From a virus: a DNA stretch of 64,000 nucleotides. The notes under the pieces were generated by a model. That model searched no databases, was not told the origin of the DNA, and saw only the letters and a program-made list of their open reading frames with translations. Each line of letters begins with the position of its first letter. The stretch's first letter is position 1. This document shows, in pieces, positions 1 to 54,807 of this stretch. Made by a program: the position numbers and the translations under genes. The stretch spans positions 9,895 through 73,894 of IMG/VR virus record IMGVR_UViG_3300025141_016375; one strand, 5' to 3'.

Positions 1-2
1 CT

Positions 3-704: not shown

Positions 705-745
705 AAATATATATATGTAATGTTATTATTGACATGGAGGCTATT

Positions 746-1685: not shown

Positions 1686-2468
1686 ATGACCCACATCTCA
1701 TATTCCGAATTAAAAGAGTGGACCGTGTGTCCATGGAAGCACAAATTAAATTACATTGATAGGATCAATGAATTTAAAGGAAACGAACATACAGCATTTG
1801 GCACCAGCATGCATACTGTATGTGAACATTTAGTTTCAGATGGCAAATTAGAGTCGACTGATTTTTTTGATAAAGAGTTTGTGAAAAATCTTTCCACTAT
1901 TAAAGAAAAAGACCCCAATATCGTTTTTAAGAAAGATTTAGTGGAACAGATGAGAGTACAAGGAGTGGCGCTCATCAAACATGTGCTCCCTGCTCTTCGC
2001 TCGTATTTTAGAAAGTTTGAGTTAATTTCAATAGAAGAAAAATTATACACCCCGATTGCAGATCAAGAGTTTAATTTTAAGGGCTTTGTAGATCTAGTTG
2101 TAAAAACCTCAGACGGTAAATACCACGTGGTCGATTGGAAAACATGCTCTTGGGGGTGGGATAGTAGAAAAAAGAACGACAAGATGATAACCTATCAGCT
2201 TACCCTCTATAAGCATTTTTGGAGTAAAAAACACAACGTTGACCCTAAAGACGTAATTACGCATTTTGCGTTGCTAAAGCGCACAGCGAAACACCATCAA
2301 GTAGAATTATTTAAAGTTACTAGCGGCCAGAAAAAAACACAAAACGCTCTTAAACTCTTAAATAAAGCCATATATAATATTCAAAAAGCCAATTTCATTA
2401 AAAATAAATTAGCGTGTTATGGAAGATATGGCACGTGCGAATACTATAAAACAACCCATTGCCCTTAA
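1686..2468 (+). CDS. PD-(D/E)XK Cas4/RecB-like exonuclease with putative Fe-S cluster
   Basis: ISYS..CP, FGT.MH and GFVDLV...VVDWKT...YQLTLY motifs. One N-terminal Cys plus three C-terminal Cys (CYGRYGTCEYYKTTHC). Confidence 0.85.
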   Translation: MTHISYSELKEWTVCPWKHKLNYIDRINEFKGNEHTAFGTSMHTVCEHLVSDGKLESTDFFDKEFVKNLSTIKEKDPNIVFKKDLVEQMRVQGVALIKHVLPALRSYFRKFELISIEEKLYTPIADQEFNFKGFVDLVVKTSDGKYHVVDWKTCSWGWDSRKKNDKMITYQLTLYKHFWSKKHNVDPKDVITHFALLKRTAKHHQVELFKVTSGQKKTQNALKLLNKAIYNIQKANFIKNKLACYGRYGTCEYYKTTHCP

Positions 2469-2476
2469 AGGTGACT

Positions 2477-3748
2477 ATGAATAAAAAAATCAAACTCCTA
2501 ACTTTAGGAGATATGCCGCTTTCTCCGAGCGGCGTGGGTACCCAAACCAAATACATTATTGAATCACTGTTGAGAACAGGCAAATATCAAGTAGTGAGTT
2601 TGGGCGGCGCTATTAAACACCCCAATCACAATCCTATTAAAACCGAAGAGTTTAAAGAAGATTGGGTGATTTATCCTGTGGATGGATATGGAAATCCTGA
2701 CTTGGTAAGATCACTAATACGCAATGAAAGGCCCGACATTTTGTGGTTTATGACCGACCCTAGATTTTGGGCATGGCTATGGCAAATGGAAAACGAGATT
2801 AGACCCTTAATACCGATGCTCTATTATCATGTATGGGATAATTACCCCTATCCACACTATAATAAAGTGTTTTATGACTCTAATGACATGATTGTGAGTA
2901 TTTCCAAGCTCACCCAAGACATTGTAGAAACGGTGGCTCCTAGTGTCAAATCAGTGTATTTGCCTCATGCCGTTAATACGGAAGTATTCACCCCGCGCGA
3001 CCCTCATAGCGACGAGATAGAAACAGCCAAAAGAACTCTCTTTGGAGAAAGTTATGATCCGGACAAATTTACTTTTTTTTGGAACAATAGAAATGCTCGC
3101 CGCAAGCAAAGTGGATCTTTGATTTTTTGGTTCAAGGCTTTTTTAGACAAAGTAGGCCACGACAAAGCTTGCTTAGTGATGCACACTGAAACAAGAGACC
3201 CACATGGCCAGGACCTTCAGGCTATAATTCAAGAGTTGGGACTAACGAACGGCGAAATATATTTTAGCCAGCACAAAGTGGATGCCGCACAATTGGCCTT
3301 GATCTACAATATGATGGATTGTACCATCAATATATCCGATGCGGAAGGTTTTGGTTTAGCCACGTTGGAATCTCTAGCATCGGGAGTGCCTATTATTGTT
3401 AATATGACAGGGGGCCTTCAAGAACAAGTGACTGACGGTGAAAAATGGTTTGGTATTGGACTCTCCCCAACATCTAAAGCTATAATTGGTTCCCAAGAGA
3501 TTCCTTATATATATGAAGATAGACTTTCGGAAGAAATAGTTGTACAAGCCTTATATGATATGTACACTAAATCGCCGGAAGAAAGAAAAAAACTAGGGGA
3601 GCAAGGCCGCCAGCACGTGCTTAAAAATTATAATTTCGAAAATTATGGGAAAGAGTGGGATAATATCTTAACTACGCTCTATGAGGAAGAGGGGTCATGG
3701 AATACTCGCAAACCTCACCAACGTTGGATATTTAAGGAGATAGTATGA
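2477..3748 (+). CDS. GT-B glycosyltransferase (GT4 / Glycos_transf_1)
   Basis: N-terminal SGVGT, NRNARRK, and the EGFGLATLES (E-x7-E) signature. Likely start is ATG 2477. Confidence 0.9.
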   Translation: MNKKIKLLTLGDMPLSPSGVGTQTKYIIESLLRTGKYQVVSLGGAIKHPNHNPIKTEEFKEDWVIYPVDGYGNPDLVRSLIRNERPDILWFMTDPRFWAWLWQMENEIRPLIPMLYYHVWDNYPYPHYNKVFYDSNDMIVSISKLTQDIVETVAPSVKSVYLPHAVNTEVFTPRDPHSDEIETAKRTLFGESYDPDKFTFFWNNRNARRKQSGSLIFWFKAFLDKVGHDKACLVMHTETRDPHGQDLQAIIQELGLTNGEIYFSQHKVDAAQLALIYNMMDCTINISDAEGFGLATLESLASGVPIIVNMTGGLQEQVTDGEKWFGIGLSPTSKAIIGSQEIPYIYEDRLSEEIVVQALYDMYTKSPEERKKLGEQGRQHVLKNYNFENYGKEWDNILTTLYEEEGSWNTRKPHQRWIFKEIV

Positions 3749-5766
3749 AAACTAAAGTAATAGTAAGGGCACCCGCCCTGACTCGTACCGGGTATGGAGA
3801 GCACGGCCGTTTTGTATTAAGAGCATTGCGCACAATGCAAGATGTTTTGGATATACATTTATTACCAGTTAATTGGGGAGCCTCTAATTGGATGTGGGAA
3901 GACACTGAGGAGCGCCGTTGGCTAGATGAGATCACGCATAAGACGGCCATTTATCACCAACAGGCTCAGCAAGCTGGCGTTCCCGTACATTACGACATGA
4001 GTGTTCAAGTGACTATCCCCAATGAATGGCAGAAGATGGCTGCGATTAATATAGGCGTAACTGCCGGTATTGAGAGTACTAAAGTTGCCCCTGTGTGGCT
4101 AGAAAAAGCCAATGAAATGGATAAAATAGTTACCGTATCCCAACATTCCAAAAATGTTTTTTTAAATACAGCTTATGATGGAACCCACAAGCACACTGGC
4201 GAACCTTTGCGGCTCAAATGTACTACCCCTGTAGAAGTGGTACATTACCCCATTAAAGACTGCGACGCAACTCCTTTAAATTTCCAATGCTCTACTTCAT
4301 TTAATTTTTTGACGATTGCACAATGGGGCCCTCGTAAAAATATAGATAACACGATTTGTTGGTTTGTAGAAGAATTTATCGATAATCCCGATGTAGGACT
4401 GGTAGTGAAAGTGTTTGGAAAAGGAGGGTCTCTCATAGACCGGCAGACTTCCCAACGCCAATTAGAAGCACTCTTGGCACCGTATAAAAATAGACAGTGT
4501 AAGGTTTATTTTTTACATGGTGATTTAAGCGAAGAAGAAATGCATGGTCTTTATAAACACCCGAGCATCAAGGCGTTTTTCTCGTTAAGCCATGGCGAAG
4601 GATTTGGGCTCCCGCATTTTGAAGCAGCATATTCTGGATTGCCTGTAATCGCTCCTGAGTGGAGTGGATATTTAGATTTCTTGTGCATGCCCAAAACGGA
4701 TAAAAAAGGAAGAAGTCGCATTAAGCCACATTTTATTTCCGTTGATTATGAATTGTTACCCATTAACCAAGAGGCCCACTGGGAAGGAGTACTAGAAAAG
4801 GATGCGATGTGGTGTTTTCCCACACAGGGATCATGTAAAATGAAATTGCGAGAAGTGGTCAAAGATTACGGCCGCTTTAAGAAACAAGCCAAAACCTTAC
4901 AGAAATGGATCTTGCAAAATTTTCAGCCTAATGTTCAATATGAAAAACTCGTTTCGAGCGTAGTGGGAAATTTAAAGGCTACGCCGGAGCCATGGCTTCC
5001 TCCTCAAAGTATTGGGGGGGTGAGTTTTTGTATTCCAACAAATGGAAAAAGATCCGAAAAAACCGATTTAACTATTAAAAGTATTCAGAACCAACCATGG
5101 GGCGAATTGCCTTATGAAATTATAGTATGCGGGGATGTGGAAAATTTTCAAAACTCTTCGGGTGCCAATATCGTTCTGGTGGAGAAGAAAGACGCATCCA
5201 CCACCGGCCATGTGGCCACTTTGCGAAATGGCGCAGTCGACCATGCTCAATATGATACCATTGTATTTTGCGATGATGACATTTTGTTAGATGCGGATTG
5301 GCTGGACGGCACAAGAGCCTATAACGAGAATAATGGCTGGCAGGTCTTAGGAAACGCTTTGCTCAACCCAGATGGTACTCGTCACTGGGACCGTGCTTTA
5401 TTGTCTCCGCATGTGTTGGTTAATTATAACCATCCAAGCACGGATAAAAATCTTATCCAAACATCAGGCTTTTTTATGATTCGACGTTCCCTCCACGAAA
5501 TAGTGCAGTGGAACGAAGAGTGCTTTGTTTATGCTGATCGAGAGAATAAGGGCGTACCCGAAGATGTGCAGTATAGTTTAGATTTACACGCCCATAACAT
5601 TCCTTTATCTTTTAATGATACAGTATGTGTGTGGCACAATGATGAGCGCTACACCCAGTTTAACAATCAAACATTATATAAAAATGTTATTCCTGATCAT
5701 CAAGAGCGAGGATTCTCTCCACTATTTGAACGGGCGACGATGGCGGCCACTTTCCAAAAGATATGA
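3745..5766 (+). CDS. Bifunctional glycosyltransferase: N-terminal GT4 (GT-B) fused to C-terminal GT2 (GT-A)
   Basis: TGYG, PRKN and GEGFGLPHFEA in the N-terminal part. SFCIPT, LRNGA, FCDDD (DxD) and PEDV in the C-terminal part. Confidence 0.85.
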   Translation: MKTKVIVRAPALTRTGYGEHGRFVLRALRTMQDVLDIHLLPVNWGASNWMWEDTEERRWLDEITHKTAIYHQQAQQAGVPVHYDMSVQVTIPNEWQKMAAINIGVTAGIESTKVAPVWLEKANEMDKIVTVSQHSKNVFLNTAYDGTHKHTGEPLRLKCTTPVEVVHYPIKDCDATPLNFQCSTSFNFLTIAQWGPRKNIDNTICWFVEEFIDNPDVGLVVKVFGKGGSLIDRQTSQRQLEALLAPYKNRQCKVYFLHGDLSEEEMHGLYKHPSIKAFFSLSHGEGFGLPHFEAAYSGLPVIAPEWSGYLDFLCMPKTDKKGRSRIKPHFISVDYELLPINQEAHWEGVLEKDAMWCFPTQGSCKMKLREVVKDYGRFKKQAKTLQKWILQNFQPNVQYEKLVSSVVGNLKATPEPWLPPQSIGGVSFCIPTNGKRSEKTDLTIKSIQNQPWGELPYEIIVCGDVENFQNSSGANIVLVEKKDASTTGHVATLRNGAVDHAQYDTIVFCDDDILLDADWLDGTRAYNENNGWQVLGNALLNPDGTRHWDRALLSPHVLVNYNHPSTDKNLIQTSGFFMIRRSLHEIVQWNEECFVYADRENKGVPEDVQYSLDLHAHNIPLSFNDTVCVWHNDERYTQFNNQTLYKNVIPDHQERGFSPLFERATMAATFQKI

Positions 5767-6539
5767 AATTATCTATTATAACCGCTGTTGGGCCCCTAAA
5801 GCACTATGAAAAATTTATTCCTCGATATATCGATAATGTAATGGCTCAAACTGTTTTTAGTGAATGCGAAATTATTGTAGTTTACATGGAATGGGATGAG
5901 AAATTTACACAGTTAAATAAACTAAATAATGTTAAGTATATTCTTGACGACCAAGAAAAAGGCGCCTATAATGCTTGGAATATGGGAATCCAAGCTAGCA
6001 ATGCACCCTATGTAACAAATTGGAATATTGACGACATTAGGCACCCCACTAGTTTGGAACGCCAAGCTACCATATTGGATAATAATTCTGATATTGATTT
6101 AATCTACAATTATCACATGATAACTAATGATTGGGAAGAAACGTTTAAGAATCTTAATCCACACACAGAGCGGCATGTTAAATTTTATCCCGATGATGGA
6201 CATGCAGTGGTCCATCAATGCTGCATGTGTGGACCAGATCCATTATGGAGGCGCGCCCTACACGATAAGGTAGGCTATTTTGATTATGAGAACTACCCTT
6301 CTATCGCGGATTGGGATATGTGGATTCGGATGGCCGACGCAGGGTGCAAGTTTAAACTTATTCCCTTACCACTGTGTCTTTTTTATGATGGTGATTCCAG
6401 CATTAGCCAACGTTTTCAATCTTCGCGAGAAGAAATAGAAAATAAAAAATTATACCAGCAGCACAAAGAGGGGTTTGATAACGTCTCTCCGGTTAAGTGG
6501 TCGATAGGACGCGTGTATATTAATGAAAAAAGTTATTAG
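5763..6539 (+). CDS. GT2-family glycosyltransferase
   Basis: LSIITA, YNAWNMGI, NIDD (DxD-like) and ADWDMWIR motifs. Confidence 0.9.
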   Translation: MKLSIITAVGPLKHYEKFIPRYIDNVMAQTVFSECEIIVVYMEWDEKFTQLNKLNNVKYILDDQEKGAYNAWNMGIQASNAPYVTNWNIDDIRHPTSLERQATILDNNSDIDLIYNYHMITNDWEETFKNLNPHTERHVKFYPDDGHAVVHQCCMCGPDPLWRRALHDKVGYFDYENYPSIADWDMWIRMADAGCKFKLIPLPLCLFYDGDSSISQRFQSSREEIENKKLYQQHKEGFDNVSPVKWSIGRVYINEKSY

Positions 6540-7176
6540 TTTTAGTTTGTGGGGCGACGATGAGAAATATACCATCGGCGCTATTCGCAATGCACAATTG
6601 GCCTCCCAAGTATATCCTGAATGGGAAGCGCGCTTTTATTGTGGGACGTCAGTCCCCGTTTCTATCATAGATCAATTGCGCGAATTACAGGCCCATGTGA
6701 TCATGATGGAAGAAGCAGGGGATTGGACTGGAATGTTCTGGCGCTTCCTCGCAATTGCCGACTCAGATGTAGAAATCATGATTTCGAGGGACACTGATTC
6801 ACGATTAAACACCAGAGAAAAAGCCGCAGTGGATGAATGGCTTGAAGGCCCCCAACTTTTTCATATTATGAGAGACCATCCATGGCATAATGCCCCCATT
6901 TTAGGCGGAATGTGGGGCGCCCGCAAACCCTTGCTTCAGGACATGGCTCAGTTAATAGCCGAATATCAAAAAGGAGATTTTTGGCAAGTAGATCAAAATT
7001 TTCTAAGAGAAGTGGTAGCTCCTCGGGTCGAACATACTTTACATATTCATGATGAATTTTTTTCACGGAGTCCTTTTCCTACGGCTCGCAATGGTGATGA
7101 ATTTGTAGGACAGGTATTTGACGAAAGTGAACAAACCATCCAAGAACATATCGAGATTTTAAGGAGATATTTATGA
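6523..7176 (+). CDS. Putative GT-A-like glycan-modifying protein
   Basis: ISFSLWG, WRFL, SRDTDSR (DxD), MRDHPWH..ILGGMWG and DQNFL motifs; lies inside the glycan cluster. Confidence 0.55.
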   Translation: MKKVISFSLWGDDEKYTIGAIRNAQLASQVYPEWEARFYCGTSVPVSIIDQLRELQAHVIMMEEAGDWTGMFWRFLAIADSDVEIMISRDTDSRLNTREKAAVDEWLEGPQLFHIMRDHPWHNAPILGGMWGARKPLLQDMAQLIAEYQKGDFWQVDQNFLREVVAPRVEHTLHIHDEFFSRSPFPTARNGDEFVGQVFDESEQTIQEHIEILRRYL

Positions 7177-7832
7177 AACATGAACCCTATGAATTATGGT
7201 GGGAAAATAATTTGGGAAAATCCTATGACCATGCAGGCACCCAACACGAAGCTCCCGATGAAGATGGGTTTATAACGTGGATGGGAGATCCTTTTGCTAT
7301 GGATCGCCAACAGGTAAGGAGACTCCTAGATCCCAATATTAAAACATTTTTGGATGTGGGTTGCGGTGCGGCCCCCGAGTATATCGGACTGCAGCAGAGC
7401 CACCCCGACATTGAATACCATGGCGTCGATATTACTCCACGTTTAGTTTCGTATTGCACCAATAAGGGAATTGATGTGGTTTTTGGCACGGCGCGAAATC
7501 TGCCCTTTGATGATGCATCGATGGATGCTGTACATGCGCGCCATGTTCTAGAGCACATGGCAGATTTTAAAGAACCCTTAGCAGAATTCATTAGAGTGGC
7601 CCGCCAAAAGGTTTATATAGCTTTTTTCATTTCTCCCATTTTAAGCCCCACCAGTCGCATTACTGATATATCACAATTGGACATTCCTTGTTATAATAAT
7701 GCATATAGTTTGTCGGAAATAAAAGATTTTTTAGCGAGTAGCACTAAAGTAAAAAGCTATGAATGGTATAGTTTGGGAGGGCATAGTAAATGTTTGCTAT
7801 CCATAGATATAATAGATATAAAGAAAGCGTAA
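7173..7832 (+). CDS. Class I SAM-dependent methyltransferase
   Basis: FLDVGCG, GVDIT, LPFDD and HVLEH motifs. Confidence 0.9.
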   Translation: MKHEPYELWWENNLGKSYDHAGTQHEAPDEDGFITWMGDPFAMDRQQVRRLLDPNIKTFLDVGCGAAPEYIGLQQSHPDIEYHGVDITPRLVSYCTNKGIDVVFGTARNLPFDDASMDAVHARHVLEHMADFKEPLAEFIRVARQKVYIAFFISPILSPTSRITDISQLDIPCYNNAYSLSEIKDFLASSTKVKSYEWYSLGGHSKCLLSIDIIDIKKA

Positions 7833-7892
7833 GCTGAATATTCAATACCCTCGCACTGTGTGAACAGCAACGAAAGAGAAGGAGTTATTAAA

Positions 7893-8435
7893 ATGATAAA
7901 TGGACAAACGAGATTCGTGTTAGACGAACTGGCACAAGAAGGTATCAAATCCGTCTTAAATATAGGATTCAGATATGATTCAGATAAAACTGTTAGAGAT
8001 TCGGTTCACTCTAGGGGAGGAACTTTTTCTGTTTTAGAAGCGTATGGGCCTAATTGCGCAGATATGCGTATAAAAAATACTGCGGATACTGTGTATGAAA
8101 AAGATGTGCGAAACATTGCGGAGTTAGATGCGGAGTGGGATGCTATTATTTGGCTTCATGGTCCCGAACATGTTTATTGGAATGAATTTGTGGAGATACG
8201 AGAAGAGATTGAGAAAAAAGCTAAAAAACTTGTGCTCTATCAAGCTCCCATTGGAGAATATCCTCAAGACGCTCTTTATGGCAACCCATATGAAAAACAT
8301 GTGGAGGCCCTAACCCCAGAAATGTTCTGGCACCTTGGATATGAAATAGTAGTCCACAATGGTAAAAAAACCCATGCGTATGATTTTGTTGAAGGAGAGT
8401 TGACGTTTTCCGCGGTACACAGAGTGGAGGGTTAA
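7893..8435 (+). CDS. Divergent SAM-dependent methyltransferase-like protein
   Basis: SVLNIG, LEAY, DVRN, WDAIIW.HGPEH and NPYEKH. The ATG at 7893 follows an AAGGAG SD. Confidence 0.6.
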   Translation: MINGQTRFVLDELAQEGIKSVLNIGFRYDSDKTVRDSVHSRGGTFSVLEAYGPNCADMRIKNTADTVYEKDVRNIAELDAEWDAIIWLHGPEHVYWNEFVEIREEIEKKAKKLVLYQAPIGEYPQDALYGNPYEKHVEALTPEMFWHLGYEIVVHNGKKTHAYDFVEGELTFSAVHRVEG

Positions 8436-9290
8436 TTGTCAAAACTTTTAATAATTCAAGAAAATGGTCGTCATGACGCCAATCGTCATATGCGAGAGTG
8501 TTTTTCACTTCAACATGGGCTCGCTTCGCATGGTATCGAATCGATTATTTGGGGTCTCGGCCACGACAATTTCTCTATTCCTTTTGAAGATATAGTTGCA
8601 GATTGTGATGCCATCTTATCAATTGAGAATTATGATACCGGGTGGATGCCAAGCTTGGCCGACATAAAAAAAACCAAGTTGTTTTGGAGCATCGACTCTC
8701 ATTGTGCGCTTCGACAACATCAACATTTTTGCCACCATGCTAAAATTGATATTCTTTTGAACTCTACGCCTCATTATAATCAATTTTATTCTAATTTAGT
8801 TAAAAAACGAGTGTGGTTTCCCAATGCAGTGGATTTAAGATGGTTTAGCCCGTTGGAGTGCGAAAAAAAGCACGATGTAGGGTTTTGCGGAAGCTTGATT
8901 CACGATAGAAAACAGTGGCTTAACACCATTCACCAGCAACTACCAGTACGCGTGGGTACGGGAATATTAGGCCGCGCAATGATTGAAGAGGTTAATTCTT
9001 ATCGGGTGTCACTTAATAAGTCAATTGATATAGACATACCATATAGAGTTTTTGAGATGACGGCATGCCGCTTACCTTTGGTGACAAATTATGTTCCCAA
9101 CTTGGAGAGACTCTATGAACTGGGAAAAGAAATCGAAGTATATCAAACAGTTGAGGAATTGATTGCGACGACGACACGATTATTAGAAAACGAGGAAGAG
9201 CGCCACGCATTGGCGCAAGCGGGATATGCTCGCACATTAAGAGACCATAACTATGAAATACGAGCGCGTCAATTAGTGGGACTTTTTTAA
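8436..9290 (+). CDS. CgeB-like glycosyltransferase (Glyco_trans_1_2)
   Basis: DVGFCGS, SLN...YRVFEMTAC and ALAQAGYARTLRDHNY..RA are typical of this family. TTG start after a GGAGG SD. Confidence 0.85.
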   Translation: MSKLLIIQENGRHDANRHMRECFSLQHGLASHGIESIIWGLGHDNFSIPFEDIVADCDAILSIENYDTGWMPSLADIKKTKLFWSIDSHCALRQHQHFCHHAKIDILLNSTPHYNQFYSNLVKKRVWFPNAVDLRWFSPLECEKKHDVGFCGSLIHDRKQWLNTIHQQLPVRVGTGILGRAMIEEVNSYRVSLNKSIDIDIPYRVFEMTACRLPLVTNYVPNLERLYELGKEIEVYQTVEELIATTTRLLENEEERHALAQAGYARTLRDHNYEIRARQLVGLF

Positions 9291-10093
9291 TGCCAGACTT
9301 TCATATTCAAGAAATATCTCATTTCGCCGAGGATGCACATTATTCATCCTCTTTGTTAGCCGTTCAACATCATATGGGCCTAGGCGATCATATACATTTA
9401 TCCGGGCTCGTGCGCTATACAGTGGTGGAATTGGGTTTCGAGGAAGTGCTTTTGTTTTGCAAAGAAGTTTATTATCAAACAATGACTAGGCTTTATGCGG
9501 ACGACGAACGGATAACAGTAGTATCAGTGGGAGACATTTATGGAGGCTTGTCGGAAACTGGTTTAGTAAGAAAACACCTTGAAAGTCTTGGCAGATCGTG
9601 TGTTTATCTGCGCTTAGGCTTTGAGCGCTATCCCGGGCAACTAGCTAACAAATTTGGCTATCCGAGTTTCATTTTTTATGATTTGGCTTGTATTTCTCGC
9701 GACGTACGATGGGAATATTTTAAATTTTCACGCAACCGTCGCGAAGAAAGCCGCCTTTATAAAAAATTGAATCCAAAGGACGTCCCTTATATTTTTGTAC
9801 ATGATGACCCATCTCGCGGCTTTAATATCCCCCTTGAAAGAGTGCTAAAAGCCTCCCCTTTTGCGGACGACAAGCTAGTAATTCGAAATGACATGTCCGA
9901 AAATATATTAGATTTTGGCGCTATTTTAGAGAATTCCGCGGAGATTCATTGTATGGGGAGCGCTCTATTTTGTTTGGCGGATATGTTATCTCTAGAGCAT
10001 CCAAGTTGTTTTTATCACAATATCCGGCCCGTATTCTCTGAATCAGAAATATTACACCAGGACACTCGAAACGAATGGAGTTGGGTACCGTAA
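9290..10093 (+). CDS. Putative GT-B-like glycan-modifying protein
   Basis: HHMGLGDHI N-terminal motif (GLGD as in GT9/GT11-like folds), YIFVHDD and EIHCMGS; cluster context. Confidence 0.5.
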   Translation: MPDFHIQEISHFAEDAHYSSSLLAVQHHMGLGDHIHLSGLVRYTVVELGFEEVLLFCKEVYYQTMTRLYADDERITVVSVGDIYGGLSETGLVRKHLESLGRSCVYLRLGFERYPGQLANKFGYPSFIFYDLACISRDVRWEYFKFSRNRREESRLYKKLNPKDVPYIFVHDDPSRGFNIPLERVLKASPFADDKLVIRNDMSENILDFGAILENSAEIHCMGSALFCLADMLSLEHPSCFYHNIRPVFSESEILHQDTRNEWSWVP

Positions 10094-10530
10094 TGGAGAA
10101 GCTACTTCAAATAGACGAAGGAAACAAGTCGTTGATCGAAGAGTTTCAGCGGACAGCCGGTTCCTCGTTAAAAACATTTAGATATTTTGAATCTCGGCCG
10201 GTGGACATCATCCAACAGCACTTGATAACATATATTATGACAGGTGAAAGTGGCGAAATCATCGGCTATGGCCATTTAGACCTGGAAGACAACGTTGTCT
10301 GGCTTGGAATATGTATAGTAGAAACTCAGTTGCGTTCCGGTTACGGGAAAAAAATGATGAAGGCTTTAATCGCTTTTGCTGATAACAACTCTGTTCAGAC
10401 GATCACTTTGTCGGTTGACAAAAAAAACGAAGCAGCGTACGCGCTATATAAAAGCTTAGGCTTCCAGAGAACCGGTCATGATAAAACAGTGTACTTTATG
10501 AAATTAGAATTAGGAGAAACAGATGGCTGA
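10093..10530 (+). CDS. GNAT-family acetyltransferase
   Basis: LGICIV...RSGYGKKMM (acetyl-CoA motif A) and LSV...NEAAYALYKSLGF (motif B). ATG 10093 overlaps the previous stop. Confidence 0.9.
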   Translation: MEKLLQIDEGNKSLIEEFQRTAGSSLKTFRYFESRPVDIIQQHLITYIMTGESGEIIGYGHLDLEDNVVWLGICIVETQLRSGYGKKMMKALIAFADNNSVQTITLSVDKKNEAAYALYKSLGFQRTGHDKTVYFMKLELGETDG

Positions 10531-10831
10531 TACATTGGGCGGTTTAATTGATAAACTAATCACGGTTGATATGAAGATGTGGAATAATCAGGAATTTCTT
10601 TATGAGGTAAGGAAAATGAGCTTTAAAGAATTTGAAAAAAAGTTTACCACCACGGAAAATGCACGAAATGAACTGTTTGAGTCTATAAAAAAATGCTGCG
10701 ATCTAAACGCACAAAGAAATCAACTCATTGATGAGGTAGATGAAAAAATTGTAGAAATGATGGGAGCTTATATCGCGGGGAAAGACTTAGATGACGGAAA
10801 ATACATTCAACGCAAACACAAGACCTATTAG
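10523..10831 (+). CDS. DUF4254-like helical protein
   Basis: TLGGLIDKL...KMW..QE and DLNAQRNQLIDEVD match the DUF4254 pattern as I recall it. Confidence 0.65.
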   Translation: MADTLGGLIDKLITVDMKMWNNQEFLYEVRKMSFKEFEKKFTTTENARNELFESIKKCCDLNAQRNQLIDEVDEKIVEMMGAYIAGKDLDDGKYIQRKHKTY

Positions 10832-10846
10832 GACAAAACACACGAA

Positions 10847-11521
10847 ATGAAAAAATGTTTTTATATACGTATAACTAAAAATGCCTGTCAAACGGTTTTT
10901 CATTTGTTTAAGAATGAAAGGGGCTTCATAAATCCCCATGCAGGCCCTACCCCGTATTATCGTAGTCCGATTGATGAATCTTTGGCACGCGAGAAAGATC
11001 GCAATTTATATCCTTTTGATTTTGAGCGGAGTGATGTGATTACGTTTAGTTTTGTGCGCAATCCTTATGATCGTGCCGTTTCTTCTTGGAAACATAGTCT
11101 TCGGGAAAACTGGACCACGTTGAAGTTTTTGGATTATTTAAAAAGGCTCCCGGCGTTAATTCCAGCCCAATCGGATTCTTTGAATGACAATGATTATGCA
11201 ATTAGACGCCATACAATGCCTCAATACCAATGGCTCAGTAATCAAGGGGGAGAGTATATTGTAGATTTTATTGGGCGGGTGGAGCACTTAACTGAACATG
11301 TACGCTTTTTTGGAAAAAAAATGGGGATGGAAACTTTTCCTTCTTCGCTGGGGCGACTTAACTCTTCGCGCCCTGTCAATGATGGGTATGTTAAATATTA
11401 TTCCTCTGAAGAAAAAAAATATGTAGAAGAAATTTATGGAAGGGATATCCATCAATTTGGATATGAGTTTGGCGCCCCCGAGCCGTCAAGTGTTTGTTAC
11501 TCGCGCCTAGGAGGAGAATAA
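10847..11521 (+). CDS. Carbohydrate sulfotransferase (Sulfotransfer_2 family)
   Basis: 5'-PSB-like YIRITKNACQT, 3'-PB FSFVRNPYDRAVSSW, H..PQY.WL and DFIGRVEHL. Confidence 0.85.
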   Translation: MKKCFYIRITKNACQTVFHLFKNERGFINPHAGPTPYYRSPIDESLAREKDRNLYPFDFERSDVITFSFVRNPYDRAVSSWKHSLRENWTTLKFLDYLKRLPALIPAQSDSLNDNDYAIRRHTMPQYQWLSNQGGEYIVDFIGRVEHLTEHVRFFGKKMGMETFPSSLGRLNSSRPVNDGYVKYYSSEEKKYVEEIYGRDIHQFGYEFGAPEPSSVCYSRLGGE

Positions 11522-11528
11522 GAGAAAT

Positions 11529-12764
11529 ATGACTATGCGAATTCCCGCTGCTTGTGTCGTACATGAGCTAGGATATGTGGTGTTAGACGATGAAACGAGA
11601 AAAGCCTATCGTGTGGTCACACACCCAGTGTTCGAGTTTATAACTTCAGAGGCTTATAAGAAGAAAGAAAATGAATATTGGCCAGCAACGCGACCCGTTT
11701 CTGTGACTCATGAATTATTTAAAGATGATGCCACTTACAAAACTGTTGAAGTGGACTACGTGGATCATATGGTATATTGGCCCGAAATGTCCGCGCGGGA
11801 TATTAAAATGTGTCTTTTGTTTTTGTGTGATGTTTCAAAATATTTGGCGCAAAACAATTTGTGTTTGGGATCCCACATGTGGAATATTACATTGACCGGT
11901 GGACGCCCCCTTCTTATAGATTTAGGTGATTTTTTTCATGGCGTAAACAAACAATATGTTTATCGCACCATCGTTAGTCATCTAGTTCCTCCTTTCACGG
12001 ATAATCATACCCCTTTGCGTCCCGAAAAATGGATGACAAACTATGATGAAATATTGGTTCAAATAAAGAACATTGAGGGTCTGGTTCGAACACCGTCAGC
12101 CAGCGGCGTTCAAATTGCCGAAGAATTAAAACGTTGCTTGTCCAATATTATCCCTCGCGAAGCTTCCCATATTTGGGATAGTTATCCGGCACAAAAAAAG
12201 ATGCCCACTGACATTGAAACTTTAGAAAGTTACGCCCAGAACATGCGTCCCAATTTGTGCGCTAGGATTAAGCAAAAAGCCCCCCAGACCCTTTTGGATT
12301 TGGGCTGCGCGCGAGGATTGTATTCTCTTTTCGCTGCAATTCAGGGCGCTTCGGTAGTAGGTCTTGATTATAGCCATGAAATGATAGGGGACGCCAATCA
12401 GAAAAGTGCCGCTTTAAAATTAAAATGCCACTTTGCTTTCATAGATTTGCTTGACATTAAAAAATGGGGGTTAGGAGGCGGTTATGGAGATTGTCTATCA
12501 CGCTTTAAAAGCGATGCGGTTATCGCCCCCGCGTTGATTCACCACGTGCATGGGAAAAATAAACCTCTCGAAATATTGATCACGGAGTGGGCAAACGCCG
12601 CCACGCAATGGATTATGGTAGAGTATATTCCTCTCGATGTTAATAATCAACCAATCGACTTAAACACGATAACGGACACTTTACATGACCTAGGATTTAA
12701 AAATATAGATATATTGAATTCTCATCCTGCCCCTAGGAAGTGGATTTTTGCAGAAAAGACTTAA
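11529..12764 (+). CDS. NoeA-like protein: kinase-like N-domain plus SAM methyltransferase C-domain
   Basis: N-domain HMWNI...PLLIDLGDF; C-domain LLDLGCARG, GLDYS, ALIHH and VEYIP. Confidence 0.7.
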   Translation: MTMRIPAACVVHELGYVVLDDETRKAYRVVTHPVFEFITSEAYKKKENEYWPATRPVSVTHELFKDDATYKTVEVDYVDHMVYWPEMSARDIKMCLLFLCDVSKYLAQNNLCLGSHMWNITLTGGRPLLIDLGDFFHGVNKQYVYRTIVSHLVPPFTDNHTPLRPEKWMTNYDEILVQIKNIEGLVRTPSASGVQIAEELKRCLSNIIPREASHIWDSYPAQKKMPTDIETLESYAQNMRPNLCARIKQKAPQTLLDLGCARGLYSLFAAIQGASVVGLDYSHEMIGDANQKSAALKLKCHFAFIDLLDIKKWGLGGGYGDCLSRFKSDAVIAPALIHHVHGKNKPLEILITEWANAATQWIMVEYIPLDVNNQPIDLNTITDTLHDLGFKNIDILNSHPAPRKWIFAEKT

Positions 12765-12777
12765 AGATATTTGACTT

Positions 12778-13878
12778 ATGATTCCTATTTATAAACCTTA
12801 TTTGCCTTCTCACTCGCTGAGACATGCGCATGCCGCGATTGACTCTACGTGGATCTCTTTTAACGGCCCATACGTGGAGCGCGCAACAGAGAAGTTGCGC
12901 GAATTATTAGGAGTGAAATATGTCCAGCTTGTCAACAATGGCACCGCAGCTACTCATTTAGTAGCGAAAGGGCTTTTTTATAAGCATCCCAATATCACTA
13001 AAGTTATTGTACCTAATAATGTGTATGTCGCTGCATGGAATGCTTTTGTTTATGATAAAAACTTTGATCTTGTGCCCATCGATGCTGATGTGGCAACCTG
13101 GAATATGAACATCGAGGCCGCAAGTCATTTATTAGATGACAATAATACAGCGCTGTACGCGGTACATAATTTAGGCAATACAATTAACATTCCGGCACTT
13201 AAGCGTAGATTTGGGAAGTGCGTCTTTGTAGAAGATAATTGCGAAGGGTTTATGGGAACCTACGAAGGAAAGTATTCTGGTACCGAATCTTTGGCCTCTT
13301 CAGTGTCTTTTTTTGGCAATAAAACAATCACTTCAGGAGAGGGCGGCGCCGTTATTACCAACGATGAAGACGTTTTTAAACATGTCAAATCCGTTCACGG
13401 CCAAGGACAGGCACCAACTAAAAAATACATTCATGATAGACTTGGCCATAACTATAGAATGACAAATGTGCAAGCTGCGATTTTATTAGGCCAGTTAGAA
13501 ATCTTACCAGAAATTTTAGAAAAGAAGAAGAATATATTTGATTTTTACAAAAAAGAATTTGCTCTGATGAGAAATGTTGAAGTTCAACAAGTCGAAGAGG
13601 GGTGCACTCCTTCCAACTGGATGATGGGAGTGCGCCTACGATCTAGGGGAGGTTACGCCTCTTTGCAGAATTTTCTCGCTGATAAGGGCATTGACTCACG
13701 ACCGATGTTTTATCCCATGTCTTCGCACTCTCATTTGAAACATGTTGCTTCCCCCACCAGGGAAAAGGGGGCTAAAATACTTCACAAAGAGGGTGCAATT
13801 CTCCCCTCCTTCCCTGAATTAACGCATAATGAACTTGTCCACATTGTGGCTTCTATTGAGGAATACGCCAACAAATGA
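12778..13878 (+). CDS. DegT/DnrJ/EryC1/StrS PLP sugar aminotransferase (perosamine synthase-like)
   Basis: NNGTAA, VEDNCEG, SFFGNKTITSGEGG (PLP Lys), GHNYRMTNVQAA and SRPMFYP. Confidence 0.92.
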   Translation: MIPIYKPYLPSHSLRHAHAAIDSTWISFNGPYVERATEKLRELLGVKYVQLVNNGTAATHLVAKGLFYKHPNITKVIVPNNVYVAAWNAFVYDKNFDLVPIDADVATWNMNIEAASHLLDDNNTALYAVHNLGNTINIPALKRRFGKCVFVEDNCEGFMGTYEGKYSGTESLASSVSFFGNKTITSGEGGAVITNDEDVFKHVKSVHGQGQAPTKKYIHDRLGHNYRMTNVQAAILLGQLEILPEILEKKKNIFDFYKKEFALMRNVEVQQVEEGCTPSNWMMGVRLRSRGGYASLQNFLADKGIDSRPMFYPMSSHSHLKHVASPTREKGAKILHKEGAILPSFPELTHNELVHIVASIEEYANK

Positions 13879-14846
13879 AAGCGATAATAACCGGAGTAAC
13901 AGGACAAGATGGGTCATATTTGGCGGAATTGTTATTAAAAAAAGGCTATGAGGTGATCGGATTAAAAAGGCGCTCTTCCACTATTTGTACCGAGCGTATC
14001 GATCCCATTTACGAGCATCCTAACTTCTATTTGCGTTATTTTAATTTAAACGATAGTGGGTGTTTTTGGAGACTTTTGCTGGAATATCAACCGGATGAAG
14101 TGTACAATTTGGGGGCCCAATCTCATGTGAAAGTCTCTTTCGAAACTCCCGAAGAAACCGTGAAGAGCATCGCTTTGGGAACTTTGCGCCAACTAGAAGC
14201 TATTCGTACGATCAATCCGGCCATTCGCTTCTATCAAGCCTCTTCCTCTGAGATGTTTGGAATTAATGTAAATTATCCTTATAACGAGGAATCGGTTTCG
14301 ATCCCAGCTTCCCCCTATGCATGTGCTAAAGTATTTGCGCACAATTTAGTTAAAAATTATAGAGCTAGTTATGGGCTTTATGCGTGTAGTGGTATTCTTT
14401 TCAACCATGAATCGCCCCGTCGAGGCGAAACCTTCGTCACTCGGAAAATTTCCTTAGCTGCAGCTAAAATTAAATTAGGACTACAGGATAAATTATATTT
14501 GGGGAACTTAGAAGGAAAGCGAGATTGGGGATTTGCAGGAGATTATGTAGAAGCAATGTGGCTCATGATGCAGCAACAACATCCCGAAGATTTTGTTATT
14601 GCCACGGGCATAATGAAGTCTGTACAAGATTTTGTAGAATGCGTTTTTGATTATGCTAAACTGGACTATAAAAAATATGTGGCAGTTGATGATCAGCTGA
14701 AACGTCCCCAAGAGGTACCGGCTCTACAAGGTGATTATTCTAAGGCCCAAAAAATATTGAAATGGGGCCCTCGCGTTACTTTTGAGGAATTAGCAGTGAT
14801 GATGTATGAATCGGACTTACAAAAGCTACAAAGGAAGACGAGATGA
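13875..14846 (+). CDS. gmd: GDP-mannose 4,6-dehydratase
   Basis: ITGVTGQDGSYLAE, NLGAQSHV, YQASSSEMFG, SPYACAK, LFNHESPRRGETFVTRKI and RDWG. Confidence 0.97.
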   Translation: MKAIITGVTGQDGSYLAELLLKKGYEVIGLKRRSSTICTERIDPIYEHPNFYLRYFNLNDSGCFWRLLLEYQPDEVYNLGAQSHVKVSFETPEETVKSIALGTLRQLEAIRTINPAIRFYQASSSEMFGINVNYPYNEESVSIPASPYACAKVFAHNLVKNYRASYGLYACSGILFNHESPRRGETFVTRKISLAAAKIKLGLQDKLYLGNLEGKRDWGFAGDYVEAMWLMMQQQHPEDFVIATGIMKSVQDFVECVFDYAKLDYKKYVAVDDQLKRPQEVPALQGDYSKAQKILKWGPRVTFEELAVMMYESDLQKLQRKTR

Positions 14847-15196
14847 GTGTTGAAATGAAAGAAATTTCCTATGAAATTAAAAAGAATACAATTGCTATTG
14901 ATTTTGATGGCGTTTTACATCAATATTCTAAAGGGTGGCAAGGGCTGTACAATGCTTATGACCCGCCTATGAAAGGGGCCGTTGCGGCCATTAAAAAACT
15001 GAAAGCCTCTGGCTATCGTCTGGTGATTTTTTCTAGTCGGGCAGTCCCGGTGATCCAAGAGTGGCTTCACAAATATGATTTAGATGATTGTTTCGAAGAG
15101 GTCACAAACACTAAAATCCCAGCCCGTGTTTATATAGATGATCGTGCTTATCATTTCGACACATGGGAAAAAACGATGGAGGACTTGTTTGATTGA
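14843..15196 (+). CDS. Small HAD-superfamily phosphatase
   Basis: Motif I IAIDFDGVL, motif II FSSR, motifs III/IV KIPA..YIDDRA. Confidence 0.8.
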   Translation: MSVEMKEISYEIKKNTIAIDFDGVLHQYSKGWQGLYNAYDPPMKGAVAAIKKLKASGYRLVIFSSRAVPVIQEWLHKYDLDDCFEEVTNTKIPARVYIDDRAYHFDTWEKTMEDLFD

Positions 15197-15923
15197 TTCG
15201 AGCAAAAGAAGCTGGAGCAAAGCCGGAAGTTGGAAAGTATTGGGGTTTCTCGTTCTTTCCTCTCTTGCTTATGCCGCCACAGGCTCTTTAAAGCAAACTT
15301 CTGTAGTGGCCATCGTTTATCAGTTGGTAATGCTAGCCCTATTTGTGATTCATGAAAAGGTATGGAATAAGATCCAGTGGGGAAAAACAAGTGGTTTATT
15401 TATCCAAATGACAGGTATGAGCGGCGCCGGTAAGACCACTTTGGCCAAAAGCGTAGGGCAAAATTTACAGAAACAAGGGATCAAAGTGGAGGTAATCGAT
15501 GGCGATGAATATAGAACAAATTTATGTCAAGATTTGGGATTTACACGGCAAGATAGAGAGGAAAATATACGAAGGCTATCGTTTGTGGGGAAAGTACTTG
15601 GCCGCAATAATGTAGTATGCATTATGTCGGCTATTAATCCCTATAATACAACGCGTAGCCATATTAAACAAGCCTCTCCTAATTCTAAATTAGTATATAT
15701 TAAATGCGATTTGGAAGAATTAAAAAAACGAGACACCAAAGGTCTTTACGAGAGAGCGCTCCTTCCCGATGGAGACCCAAATAAGGTTTATAATTTTACC
15801 GGGATTTCCGATCCCTTTGATGTCCCAGCCGACCCAGATTTAATTATTGAAACCGACAAAGAATCTTTAACTAATTCCATAATCAAATTGGAAAAATTAA
15901 TTTTAAAAAGTATTGGAGGATAA
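15189..15923 (+). CDS. cysC: Adenylyl-sulfate (APS) kinase with N-terminal DUF2061-like membrane domain
   Basis: MTGMSGAGKTT, DGDEYR..L..DLGF...DREENIRR, RDTKGLY and FTGISDPF. Hydrophobic N-terminus RSWSKA.SWK...HEKVWNKIQWG. Probable TTG start at 15189 after a GGAGG SD (track ORF starts at 15138). Confidence 0.9.
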   Translation: MIDSSKRSWSKAGSWKVLGFLVLSSLAYAATGSLKQTSVVAIVYQLVMLALFVIHEKVWNKIQWGKTSGLFIQMTGMSGAGKTTLAKSVGQNLQKQGIKVEVIDGDEYRTNLCQDLGFTRQDREENIRRLSFVGKVLGRNNVVCIMSAINPYNTTRSHIKQASPNSKLVYIKCDLEELKKRDTKGLYERALLPDGDPNKVYNFTGISDPFDVPADPDLIIETDKESLTNSIIKLEKLILKSIGG

Positions 15924-15924
15924 T

Positions 15925-16215
15925 ATGAGAGATATTACGATGACAGATCAAGCTGTAGGCGCTGTAATGATGGCGTTGCAGAAAAGTTTAATGGAACAAA
16001 GCGACATTGTTCCGGTACTCAAGGGCTTCAAATTTGCCGCTACACAAGAAGGGTTGACGGTGATTAACCCGCCTTTGGTTAAGTTTAATGAGGAGACAAC
16101 GGAGATTTTCCGCGAGGCCCAGCGCAATGAGTTGAGTGAAGTGTCCACTAGCGAAAGGGCGTCCGATCCCGGGGGCTTTGATGTTGTGACGACACAGCCT
16201 ACTACTTCGGATTAA
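15925..16215 (+). CDS. Hypothetical phage protein
   Basis: ORF 15913..16215; ATG 15925 follows a GGAGG SD. Confidence 0.7.
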   Translation: MRDITMTDQAVGAVMMALQKSLMEQSDIVPVLKGFKFAATQEGLTVINPPLVKFNEETTEIFREAQRNELSEVSTSERASDPGGFDVVTTQPTTSD

Positions 16216-16216
16216 G

Positions 16217-16465
16217 ATGCCCATATATTTATATGACTGTCGTGGGTGTAAAATTAGTTTTACAATAAGACATGGAATGGACGAGACATGCGCAGAATGC
16301 TTAACGTGCGGTTCTGATAATGTCGTACGCCTTCCTGCTGATTTTACCAATCGTTCTAAATCCATTGTGCGTTCTAAAAAAGTGGGAGATACAACTAAAG
16401 ATTTTATAGAAAGTGCGAGACAAGATTTAAAAACACAAAAAGAGGAACTAGAGGAACAAAGATGA
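16217..16465 (+). CDS. FmdB-family zinc-ribbon protein
   Basis: MPIYLYDCRGC...CLTCGS (two CxxC pairs). Confidence 0.8.
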   Translation: MPIYLYDCRGCKISFTIRHGMDETCAECLTCGSDNVVRLPADFTNRSKSIVRSKKVGDTTKDFIESARQDLKTQKEELEEQR

Positions 16466-16782
16466 ATTGGGCTATTTTTTATTTAAGCTTATCATTGATT
16501 TTTAATGTACTGTTTATTTGGTATATTATTAAAATGATCAAACGCGTTTTAGCCTTTCAAGATCGATTAGATGATTTTGTAGAGAGCTTAGAGACCTATG
16601 AAGGCCATGTGGATGTCATCTATAATCTGGAAACATATTATGGCGATGAAACATTGGGCAATCTTTTAAGGCACTCTAAAGCTGTTGTTGAAGAATGCCA
16701 AGAGTTCAGAGCGCTATATTATGGCGAAGAATCAGTCAAGTTTGATGATTATAATGAACTGGAGATCGTTGATGGCCCGTAA
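16462..16782 (+). CDS. Small membrane-anchored protein
   Basis: N-terminal hydrophobic helix (WAIFYLSLSLIFNVLFIWYII) followed by an acidic helical region. Confidence 0.7.
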   Translation: MNWAIFYLSLSLIFNVLFIWYIIKMIKRVLAFQDRLDDFVESLETYEGHVDVIYNLETYYGDETLGNLLRHSKAVVEECQEFRALYYGEESVKFDDYNELEIVDGP

Positions 16783-17458
16783 ACGAAAAAATTATTATTT
16801 CACTTTAGAGCACGAACAGGCAATTATAGATTACTGTTCTACGGAGGATTCTAAAAGCAGAAATGAATTGTACAAAGTTTGGATTGGTCCCGTTTTTGAT
16901 GAAATGGTGGACAAAATCGTTTATACCTATCGATTCACCACCCTTCCGAATATCGATGCCTTGCGTGACGACTGTAAAAATTGGTTAATTACTATATTAG
17001 ATAAATACGACCCCTCGAAAGGCTCTAAAGCCTTCACCTATTTCAGCGTGGTTACAAAAAATTGGTTTATTCATCAAGTTAAAAAAACGAGCAAAAAAGC
17101 CAAAAGAGAAGTTCTTTTGGAAGATTATTTTATTGATAGTACTACTATGCACCAGGCTCACGCTTTAATCGAACGCAATACTATTATTGAGGATCGGATT
17201 AAGGTTGAATTTTTTACTCATTTAAAAGAAGAAGTGGATTCATGGCATGAGTTACCTTTAAAGCCCAATGAAAAGAAAACCGTTCAAGCTATTCAAGTGC
17301 TATTTGATGAGTCCGAGAAAATAGATATTTTTAATAAAAAAGCTATTTACTTATATATAAGGGAAATTACTGGACTAAATACAAAACAAGTAGTAAGCTC
17401 CCTCAACAGAATTAGACGAAGATACAGAGAGTTTAAAAAAGAATGGGACGAAAAATAA
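16772..17458 (+). CDS. Putative phage late sigma factor (divergent sigma-70 region 2, gp55-like)
   Basis: KYDPSKGSKAFTYFSVVTKN resembles sigma region 2.3-2.4; C-terminal helical/HTH-like IREITGLNTKQVVSSL. Lies just before the structural block. ATG 16772 follows a GGAG SD. Confidence 0.65.
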   Translation: MARKRKNYYFTLEHEQAIIDYCSTEDSKSRNELYKVWIGPVFDEMVDKIVYTYRFTTLPNIDALRDDCKNWLITILDKYDPSKGSKAFTYFSVVTKNWFIHQVKKTSKKAKREVLLEDYFIDSTTMHQAHALIERNTIIEDRIKVEFFTHLKEEVDSWHELPLKPNEKKTVQAIQVLFDESEKIDIFNKKAIYLYIREITGLNTKQVVSSLNRIRRRYREFKKEWDEK

Positions 17459-19004: not shown

Positions 19005-19016
19005 AGGGTGTAAAGA

Positions 19017-29489: not shown

Positions 29490-29499
29490 TAATAATTAG

Positions 29500-54802: not shown

Positions 54803-54807
54803 AAAAA

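Follow-up and report, generated by a model that had tools for sequence, protein, structure and literature searches.

What does a lytic phage build with a 16-gene glycan island, and on which acceptor? The question is raised by a 64,000-nt window of viral DNA, bases 9895-73894 of the 73,894-bp linear IMG/VR contig IMGVR_UViG_3300025141_016375, which is a 74-kb piece of the genome (roughly 185 kb) of an uncultured, lytic T4-like marine phage. CheckV puts the completeness of the contig at 41%, and complete relatives measure 185-200 kb. In our assessment there is an even chance that the island enables the phage to O-glycosylate its own distal tail proteins, autonomously and in the cytoplasm, with a glycan that is methylated and sulfated and contains N-acyl-perosamine. 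In this scheme, a pair of GT4 glycosyltransferases (GTs) conserved throughout the clade would lay the inner glycan on Ser/Thr residues within hydrophobic-S/T-G/A/S-S motifs of distal baseplate and tail-fibre proteins. Glycosylation would take place late in infection, driven by the same promoter class as the virion genes, and swappable middle cassettes would provide a different outer sugar in each phage, here N-acyl-perosamine with methyl and sulfate groups. With somewhat less confidence, we extend this scheme to a large aquatic T4-like clade that would coat its distal tail proteins with an O-linked glycan, made of a GT4-pair core and a cassette-diversified outer part, as a viral analogue of the O-antigen. 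The outer cassettes would in this case supply perosamine, nonulosonic acids, methylation, radical-SAM tailoring and sulfation to phages of hosts as different as Flavobacteria and Microcystis.

To annotate the island, we used Pfam and NCBIfam profiles, PHROGs, AlphaFold2 (AF2) models with fold comparison against the PDB, and Atlas language-model features. Calling of open reading frames (ORFs) yielded a 13.5-kb block of 16 tightly packed ORFs on the plus strand from 2459 (TTG start) to 15923, separated by gaps of at most 28 nt and often overlapping. This agrees with the 16 contiguous co-oriented genes of an initial annotation made from the sequence alone, whose start at 2477 falls within the first codons of the first ORF. 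The genes are (positions in the window):

2459..3748, + strand: GT4a, core GT-B glycosyltransferase (PF00534, E 7.5e-11; phrog_2170, E 6e-27)
3745..5766, + strand: GT4b fused to a GT2 (GT-A) domain (PF00534 at residues 188-314; PF00535 at residues 487-584)
5763..6539, + strand: GT2 glycosyltransferase, part of the variable cassette (PF00535, E 4.8e-9)
6523..7176, + strand: GT-A fold glycosyltransferase without Pfam match (AF2 pLDDT 90.1; invariant D90xD92)
7173..7832, + strand: S-adenosylmethionine (SAM) methyltransferase, Methyltransf_11 (PF08241, E 1.5e-14)
7860..8435, + strand: probable small methyltransferase (Atlas feature neighbours are Methyltransf_11 clusters at 0.96, 10/10 agreeing)
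8436..9290, + strand: CgeB-like glycosyltransferase, Glyco_trans_1_2 (PF13524, E 5.3e-24)
9290..10093, + strand: virus-specific compact GT-B/GT9-like protein, probable glycosyltransferase (AF2 pLDDT 79.6)
10075..10530, + strand: GNAT N-acetyltransferase (PF00583, E 2.6e-13; weak PseH-like match)
10523..10831, + strand: small protein (63% identical homologue in relative L160, adjoining GNAT and DegT)
10847..11521, + strand: carbohydrate-type sulfotransferase, Sulfotransfer_2 (PF03567, E 4e-12, 47 bits vs cut-off 22)
11529..12764, + strand: N-terminal domain (residues 1 to ~210, no family) followed by a SAM methyltransferase (PF13847 and PF13649 at residues 250-350)
12778..13878, + strand: pyridoxal-phosphate-dependent (DegT) aminotransferase, probable GDP-perosamine synthase (PF01041, E 1e-63)
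13875..14846, + strand: GDP-mannose 4,6-dehydratase, Gmd (TIGR01472 equivalog, 427.5 bits vs cut-off 415)
14843..15196, + strand: minimal cap-less HAD phosphatase (PF00702, E 5e-8; DxDG, S and DD motifs intact)
15138..15923, + strand: adenosine phosphosulfate (APS) kinase, CysC, with an N-terminal DUF2061 membrane anchor (TIGR00455, 162 bits vs cut-off 138.7; PF09834 at residues 28-77)

The island holds six or seven GT domains. The five that had been called clear from the start (GT4, GT4+GT2, GT2 and CgeB-like) were recovered by Pfam, and the two GT-like proteins of no known family could be placed by structure prediction. ORF 6523-7176 has a GT-A fold with an invariant DxD motif, and its top PDB folds are those of the capsid-glycosylating GT A64R of virus PBCV-1 (2p73, 2p6w, 2p72; E 5e-9; TM 0.54-0.59), followed by glycogenin. 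The GT-B/GT9-like fold of ORF 9290-10093 is the weaker of the two assignments; its weak PDB matches are the GT9 protein 3tov (TM 0.49), TibC and EarP. This protein belongs to a virus-only family in Atlas, and its neighbours by structure (TM about 0.75) come from Nucleocytoviricota: DUF6165 proteins, alone or fused to GNAT. The best solved relative of GT4a is the chlorovirus GT B736L (3oy2). By analogy, the presence of GTs from viruses that glycosylate their own capsids (PBCV-1 A64R, chlorovirus B736L) among the fold and sequence neighbours would support a virion acceptor. As for the three methyltransferase-like genes that had been proposed, two are clear by Pfam, one of which (11529-12764) additionally has weak O-methyltransferase and WbdD motif matches in the PDB. 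The third, 7860-8435, had no match in Pfam, NCBIfam or PHROGs; language-model features make it a possible methyltransferase, as a lead only. The calls of GNAT, sulfotransferase, aminotransferase, Gmd, HAD and APS kinase were borne out by Pfam and NCBIfam, and the sole gene call to fail was DUF4254 for ORF 10523-10831, in which PF14063 scored below its cut-off (E 0.0028, 18 bits vs 27).

These families suggest a pathway. Gmd and the perosamine-synthase-like aminotransferase would convert host GDP-mannose to GDP-4-amino-4,6-dideoxymannose (GDP-perosamine), of which the 4-amino sugar would be N-acylated by the GNAT protein. The six or seven GT domains would assemble the chain, two or three methyltransferases would methylate it and the sulfotransferase would sulfate it, using phosphoadenosine phosphosulfate (PAPS) made by the membrane-anchored APS kinase of the phage from host APS. 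Judged by sequence, predicted enzymes for all these steps, i.e. GDP-perosamine formation, N-acylation, chain assembly, methylation and sulfation, are present; GDP-perosamine as the product and N-acylation of the sugar are what family knowledge suggests. The best solved relatives of the aminotransferase are the perosamine synthetases 3bn1, 3dr7 and 3dr4 (E about 3e-47), and no equivalog model scored above its cut-off (LegC-like, 208 bits vs 420).

The sulfation module is better supported than the perosamine and N-acylation reading. ORF 10847-11521 also matches phrog_3347, 'galactose-3-O-sulfotransferase' (E 2e-13). APS kinase occurs in 4 of 24 relatives, and sulfotransferase families (PF03567, PF13469, PF00685) are found in the same four genomes and in none of the other 20. 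In these 24 relatives, the sulfotransferase always travels with APS kinase, and the occurrence of two different sulfotransferase families in the APS kinase genomes suggests more than one independent pairing. No ATP sulfurylase was seen among the scanned ORFs of the 74-kb contig, the relatives not having been searched for one, and we assume that APS is supplied by the host. The closest homologues of the HAD protein always adjoin APS kinase, as in L088, L097 and L120 (51-77% identity); speculatively, this phosphatase might remove phosphoadenosine phosphate, the inhibitory by-product of sulfation. By hydropathy, the island proteins are soluble and the sole predicted membrane helix is located at the N-terminus of APS kinase (hydrophobic segment at residues 54-72). 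This DUF2061 domain comprises one or two hydrophobic helices and is kept in the copies of three relatives; a membrane-anchored CysC is unusual in a phage. The anchor may place PAPS synthesis beside sulfate uptake and activation of the host.

The position of the island is fixed. In hundreds of marine relatives the locus lies between the PD-(D/E)XK nuclease and the gp55-like sigma factor, for which we found 555 and 146 relatives in IMG/VR, respectively. Upstream, the nuclease is accompanied by a PIN-PhoH fusion, while downstream three small conserved genes, the sigma factor, the baseplate genes gp25 and gp6 and very large virion ORFs follow. The flanking genes are:

1686..2468, + strand: PD-(D/E)XK nuclease, conserved left flank (PF12705, E 2e-18)
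15913..16782, + strand: right flank of three small conserved genes, the middle one an FmdB zinc ribbon (TIGR02605 for 16217-16465), kept in 59-75 relatives
16685..17458, + strand: gp55-like late sigma factor, right anchor (phrog_234, E 2.5e-5; 146 relatives)

The nuclease-to-sigma interval spans 14.2 kb in the window and 11.4-28.5 kb in 15 contigs. In 63 of 69 loci GT4a comes immediately after the nuclease, and the GT4 half of GT4b is present in 60 of 61, with identities (58-74%) like those of the flanking core genes. Fusion of this half to GT2 is found in only one of 60 loci; in the other 59 the GT4 half stands alone and any GT2 gene is separate. The closest cultured phages, Flavobacterium phage vB_FspM_immuto (Immutovirus, 160 kb) and Microcystis phage Mel-JY01 (190 kb), share the order nuclease, GT4a, GT4b, followed by GT2, aminotransferase and methyltransferase genes. 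GT4a is 32% identical to immuto gp181 over its full length (E 7e-72), GT4b is ~30% identical to immuto gp180 and to its Mel-JY01 homologue, and the gp6 homologues of both phages are each ~30% identical as well; megablast of window positions 1-20000 against cultured phages gave no match. By conservation and position, GT4a and GT4b are core genes of the lineage. In immuto, a 152-aa ORF lies between the GT4b homologue and GT2.

Between these conserved ends, the gene content changes from phage to phage. Gmd is present in the islands of 39 of 65 relatives, and homologues of the GT2 gene 5763-6539 occur in 16 loci at no more than 36% identity. Genes move in blocks: GT2 and the 6523-like and 9290-like genes are found together in L029, L055 and L072, and so are GNAT, the small ORF (10523-10831) and DegT in L160. 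Clustering of 1381 non-overlapping island ORFs of the relatives gave 367 protein clusters, the representatives of which are mostly epimerases/dehydratases, RmlD, GT1, GT2 and many methyltransferases; further dominant families are CMP-sugar cytidylyltransferases, Polysacc_synt_2, DegT, radical SAM/B12 and CgeB-like proteins. In layout the island therefore closely resembles an O-antigen locus, with conserved ends around a hypervariable middle of glycan-tailoring genes that are patchy and move in blocks.

One boundary between cassettes can be seen in the sequencing runs. A 2024 seawater run (X6) contained a 3-kb contig ~98% identical to 6973-9257, the block of methyltransferase, 7860 ORF and CgeB-like gene, which continues after 9257 with 622 unrelated letters, a visible cassette boundary. 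The divergence directly shows that cassettes are exchanged at gene boundaries.

The island is real and phage-borne. A metagenome assembly whose island resembles bacterial loci in content and is mosaic relative to its relatives invites the suspicion that bacterial DNA was mis-joined to a phage contig or that co-occurring phages were merged into a chimera. We consider the probability of such an artefact negligible. Both island junctions recur in at least 60 independent contigs, and GC content is even over island and flanks. One source-like sequencing run covers 1-17353 with zero mismatches and even depth, and for every part of the island two independent runs (2017 and 2023) contain pieces that match without a mismatch. 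Since independent samples contain identical pieces all along the island, the contig is not a chimera; the mis-assembled bacterial contig named by the initial annotation as a possible undoing of its proposal is thus refuted at the level of contig data. Further to the right, at 16937-17500, word depth, 14-22 elsewhere, rises to ~1256 (source-like run) and 338 (an independent run), and many alternative joints occur at 17073-17327. Many co-occurring relatives share the gp55 region, which includes or borders on a variable segment.

For candidate acceptors among the phage proteins, we scored the motif [VILFMYW][ST][GAS]S (hydrophobic-[ST]-[GAS]-S) against residue shuffles. The motif is enriched in five ORFs downstream of gp6 (z 5.6-8.3) and in no enzyme. 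The candidate acceptors are:

31742..33739, + strand: distal baseplate/tail protein (9 motifs vs 1.3 expected, z 7.7)
33743..44074, + strand: 3443-aa virion protein (14 motifs vs 3.5 expected, z 5.8)
53729..56016, + strand: two adjacent ORFs (z 7.7 and 8.3)
61389..63071, + strand: 560-aa ORF (z 5.6)

Of 23 homologues of 31742-33739, 21 are enriched as well, and the phage with the smallest island observed (G006, 11.4 kb) keeps the motif. In immuto (gp101-gp111; z up to 12.1) and Mel-JY01 (z up to 9.6), too, proteins of the tail fibre and tail spike and baseplate-distal proteins are enriched in it. No enrichment was detectable in gp34-37 of T4 or in gp7, VrlC and the fibre proteins of cyanophage S-SM2, two phages that lack the GT pair.

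A promoter-like element precedes both virion genes and the island operon. The sequence CTAWTTA is found in the gaps that separate gp25, three further virion genes and PIN-PhoH, the gene at the head of the island operon, from the genes in front of them. The extended form RCTAWTTA was found 18 times on the plus strand and once on the minus strand (-633 to 62005 relative to the window), mostly in short gaps before genes, for example at 29499, 49064, 52699 and 60870. At least 55 of 79 relatives keep CTAWTTA ahead of PhoH; within the island the element does not occur. RCTAWTTA is thus a candidate late promoter for the gp55-like sigma factor, unlike the T4 late promoter TATAAATA, which is not enriched. 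The exact heptamer CTAATTA was discarded: it occurs 11 times overall vs 9.1 expected and upstream of PhoH in only 12 of 79 relatives, the degenerate CTAWTTA being the conserved form. As the exact heptamer is neither over-represented nor well kept, we give expression timing modest weight only.

Absences of export and DNA-modification genes were scored in four CheckV-complete relatives. The flippase Wzx (PF01943), the polymerase Wzy (PF04932) and the ABC-2 permease (PF01061) were absent from the island and from these four genomes, and initiating transferases of the WbaP type (PF02397) and WecA type (PF00953) were missing there and also in one 84%-complete relative; positive controls were found in all these searches. 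GtrA (PF04138), again searched with a positive control, was absent from the island and the four complete relatives as well. Among 1419 island ORFs of ~150 relatives, not a single protein with four or more membrane helices was predicted. LptF permease and HisP ATPase labels in immuto (L195 65939-66274 and 72433-72645) belong to ORFs of only 111 and 70 aa and are almost certainly over-annotations. Of the features of a surface-polysaccharide locus, sugar-nucleotide genes and several GTs in one operon are thus there, and initiator, flippase, polymerase and exporter are missing. Gtr-type lysogenic conversion, which involves GtrA and a temperate phage, has no counterpart in the complete relatives either: the tyrosine integrase (PF00589) was not found in them, although the control was, so the lineage looks strictly lytic. 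The earlier statement that flippase, polymerase, ABC exporter and initiating transferase are missing therefore holds for the island and now extends to four complete genomes. The conclusion drawn from it, that the glycan is built in the cytoplasm on virion proteins or DNA and is not exported, fares less evenly. The lack of export genes leaves no phage-autonomous export route and agrees with it, but absence alone makes the inference too strong, because soluble GTs can act on undecaprenyl-linked intermediates of the host and make use of host exporters. Its DNA half is disfavoured.

Such use of host machinery is the basis of an alternative that we consider unlikely, though by no means negligible, namely that soluble phage enzymes feed the undecaprenyl-linked O-antigen, capsule or S-layer glycan pathway of the host. 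Initiating transferase, flippase and ligase would be provided by the host, and the purpose would be to block superinfection or to keep progeny from sticking to debris. 'LPS genes' (for lipopolysaccharide) in the hypervariable islands of T4-like cyanophages have long been read as host-surface remodelling, and Gmd with perosamine synthase, GT2, GT4 and methyltransferases are typical of O-antigen and capsule loci. The peripheral GTs of these pathways also lack membrane helices, so solubility does not exclude this alternative. What speaks against it is that the GT pair and the locus are kept across phages of Bacteroidota and Cyanobacteria, which have unrelated surface glycans, that exporter, polymerase and initiating enzyme are missing from all four complete relatives, and that lysogenic conversion is not to be expected without integrase or GtrA. 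Moreover, a lytic phage that spends 11-28 kb on a cell it is due to lyse needs a special rationale. Conservation of GT pair and synteny in phages of hosts from different phyla therefore argues for a phage-encoded acceptor. The same argument applies to a different cytoplasmic acceptor, e.g. flagellin, pilin, an adhesin or another protein of the host, a non-virion phage protein, a lipid or a small molecule, modified for takeover of the cell or evasion of its defences. This is a rather doubtful option, for which no host target can be named and from which the motif enrichment points away, towards virion proteins. It gains from nonulosonic-acid-type genes of the relatives (CTP_transf_3, Polysacc_synt_2, DegT), a type that bacteria often use to O-glycosylate flagellin or pilin, and from a GT4 model match, 'GT4 in conflict systems', scoring about at cut-off. 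DNA hypermodification, in which the GTs would glycosylate hydroxylated phage bases against restriction, is very improbable. Phage GT-A and GT-B enzymes related to LPS enzymes do glycosylate DNA carrying 5-hydroxymethylcytosine or 5-hydroxycytosine (5hoC), and clusters of this type (T4 a/b-GT; RB69 and DLP3 arabinosyl-5hoC, PMC13326640; 5mYOX/GT, 10.1101/2023.12.21.572611) resemble the island in having phage GT-A/GT-B enzymes and sugar-nucleotide genes without export genes. Unlike the island lineage, they have obligatory base-hydroxylating or base-hydroxymethylating enzymes: known routes need a ThyA homologue, or a cytosine-C5 methyltransferase with 5mYOX. In the four complete relatives, neither ThyA (PF00303) nor the C5-methyltransferase (PF00145) was found (controls were), nor the Tet/JBP oxygenase (PF12851), a weak negative as this search had no positive control; DpdA was not found either. 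The DNA-base modification genes that the initial annotation suggested looking for thus did not turn up as any of the known precursor enzymes. In DNA of immuto, which has a homologous GT pair and island, liquid chromatography-mass spectrometry found dA, dC and dT canonical and dG fully replaced by fdPreQ1, and no glycosylated base was reported (PMC10516641). Together with the missing base-modification enzymes, this makes DNA an unlikely acceptor. Sulfation, N-acylation and six or seven GT domains also go far beyond known DNA glycans.

Glycosylation of distal tail proteins, the reading that we favour, has to be weighed against several points of its own. The support for virion proteins as candidate acceptors is indirect. 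Motif and GT pair amount to about one evolutionary observation, because both are clade-wide and the motif proteins are homologous, and the motif could be a structural repeat or a feature of the fold. No relative without the GT pair was found, so there is no natural knock-out contrast for joint loss of motif and GTs. Matches to GT-A and GT-B folds do not reveal the acceptor, and Gmd and perosamine synthase are classic O-antigen enzymes, and lipid-linked pathways, too, make use of soluble GTs. The class of the promoter is deduced from the position of the element. Finally, the absences rest on relatives, because 41% of the phage's own genome is in hand.

Known systems resemble the island in part. 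The GDP-(N-acetyl)perosamine O-antigen pathway of Caulobacter crescentus (Per structures 3bn1 and 3dr4) likewise uses Gmd followed by a DegT-family GDP-perosamine synthase, and GDP-perosamine O-antigen pathways also exist in E. coli O157 and Vibrio cholerae O1. Unlike the island, bacterial perosamine loci also encode an export system (Wzx/Wzy or ABC) and an enzyme that starts synthesis on a lipid carrier. For N-acetylation they have PerB, a left-handed beta-helix enzyme, while the island has a GNAT protein. Mycobacteriophage glycosylation systems comprise only a few GTs. Virion O-glycosylation by mycobacteriophages of the Che8, Corndog and Myrna type (Freeman et al. 2023, as cited in PMC12619734) is, in that account, similar in that the phage is proposed to decorate its structural proteins with soluble GTs that it encodes itself, and has no export genes. 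There, the GTs are described as lying in the structural operon and the C-termini of capsid or tail-tube subunits as being modified. The island differs in having 16 genes, including sugar-nucleotide synthesis, methylation and sulfation, outside the structural operon, with distal tail proteins as candidate acceptors, and is known from its genes alone. A parallel in enzyme logic is offered by giant viruses: Mimivirus and chlorovirus PBCV-1 (A64R) autonomously make 4-amino-4,6-dideoxyhexose in the cytoplasm, N-acetylate and O-methylate it and move it to virion proteins by viral GTs (PMC9614988). The Mimivirus fibril glycan cluster (R141 dehydratase, L136 aminotransferase, L142 acetyltransferase-GT, R132 methyltransferase and several GTs; PMC9614988) shares with the island the combination of dehydratase, aminotransferase, acetyltransferase, methyltransferase and GTs. 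Giant viruses have eukaryotic hosts and proceed from UDP-glucose to viosamine, as opposed to GDP-mannose to perosamine in the island, and sequence relationships are remote; sulfation is not reported in this review, in which the term is absent (PMC9614988). The islands of immuto and Mel-JY01, at ~30% identity, contain different cassettes and no sulfation genes. Their genes are annotated only as generic glycosyltransferases, and we found no paper on their function. In the literature searched, we found no description from a bacterial virus of a glycan locus of this scale, with an architecture of conserved core plus cassettes or with a sulfation module, and no paper that describes a sulfated glycan on the particle of a bacterial virus.

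Virion glycosylation has so far been known mainly from a few mycobacteriophages. If the glycan is indeed carried by the tail, phage glycosylation would be a widespread and rapidly diversifying trait of abundant marine and freshwater phages, with consequences for host recognition, escape from grazers and from phage-binding enzymes or receptors, particle stickiness, carbon export and the reading of virion proteins in proteomics. The gene content further points to a phage that redirects host sulfur (APS to PAPS) and GDP-mannose. Because both the GT pair and the candidate sequon have counterparts in two cultured relatives, the identity of the acceptor can be tested directly.

Some ORFs outside the island deserve mention. 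A 236-aa ORF at 975-1685 of the window is kept in all relatives and has a sub-threshold match to the ATLF-like family (anthrax lethal factor N/C-domain; E 0.002, 18 bits vs cut-off 27), which is probably meaningless. Two further ORFs are located on the contig (L002) upstream of the window, a weakly tubulin/FtsZ-like one at 5396-6520 (E 3e-5, below cut-off) and one of 694 aa at 1599-3683 with a weak cytidylyltransferase-like region.

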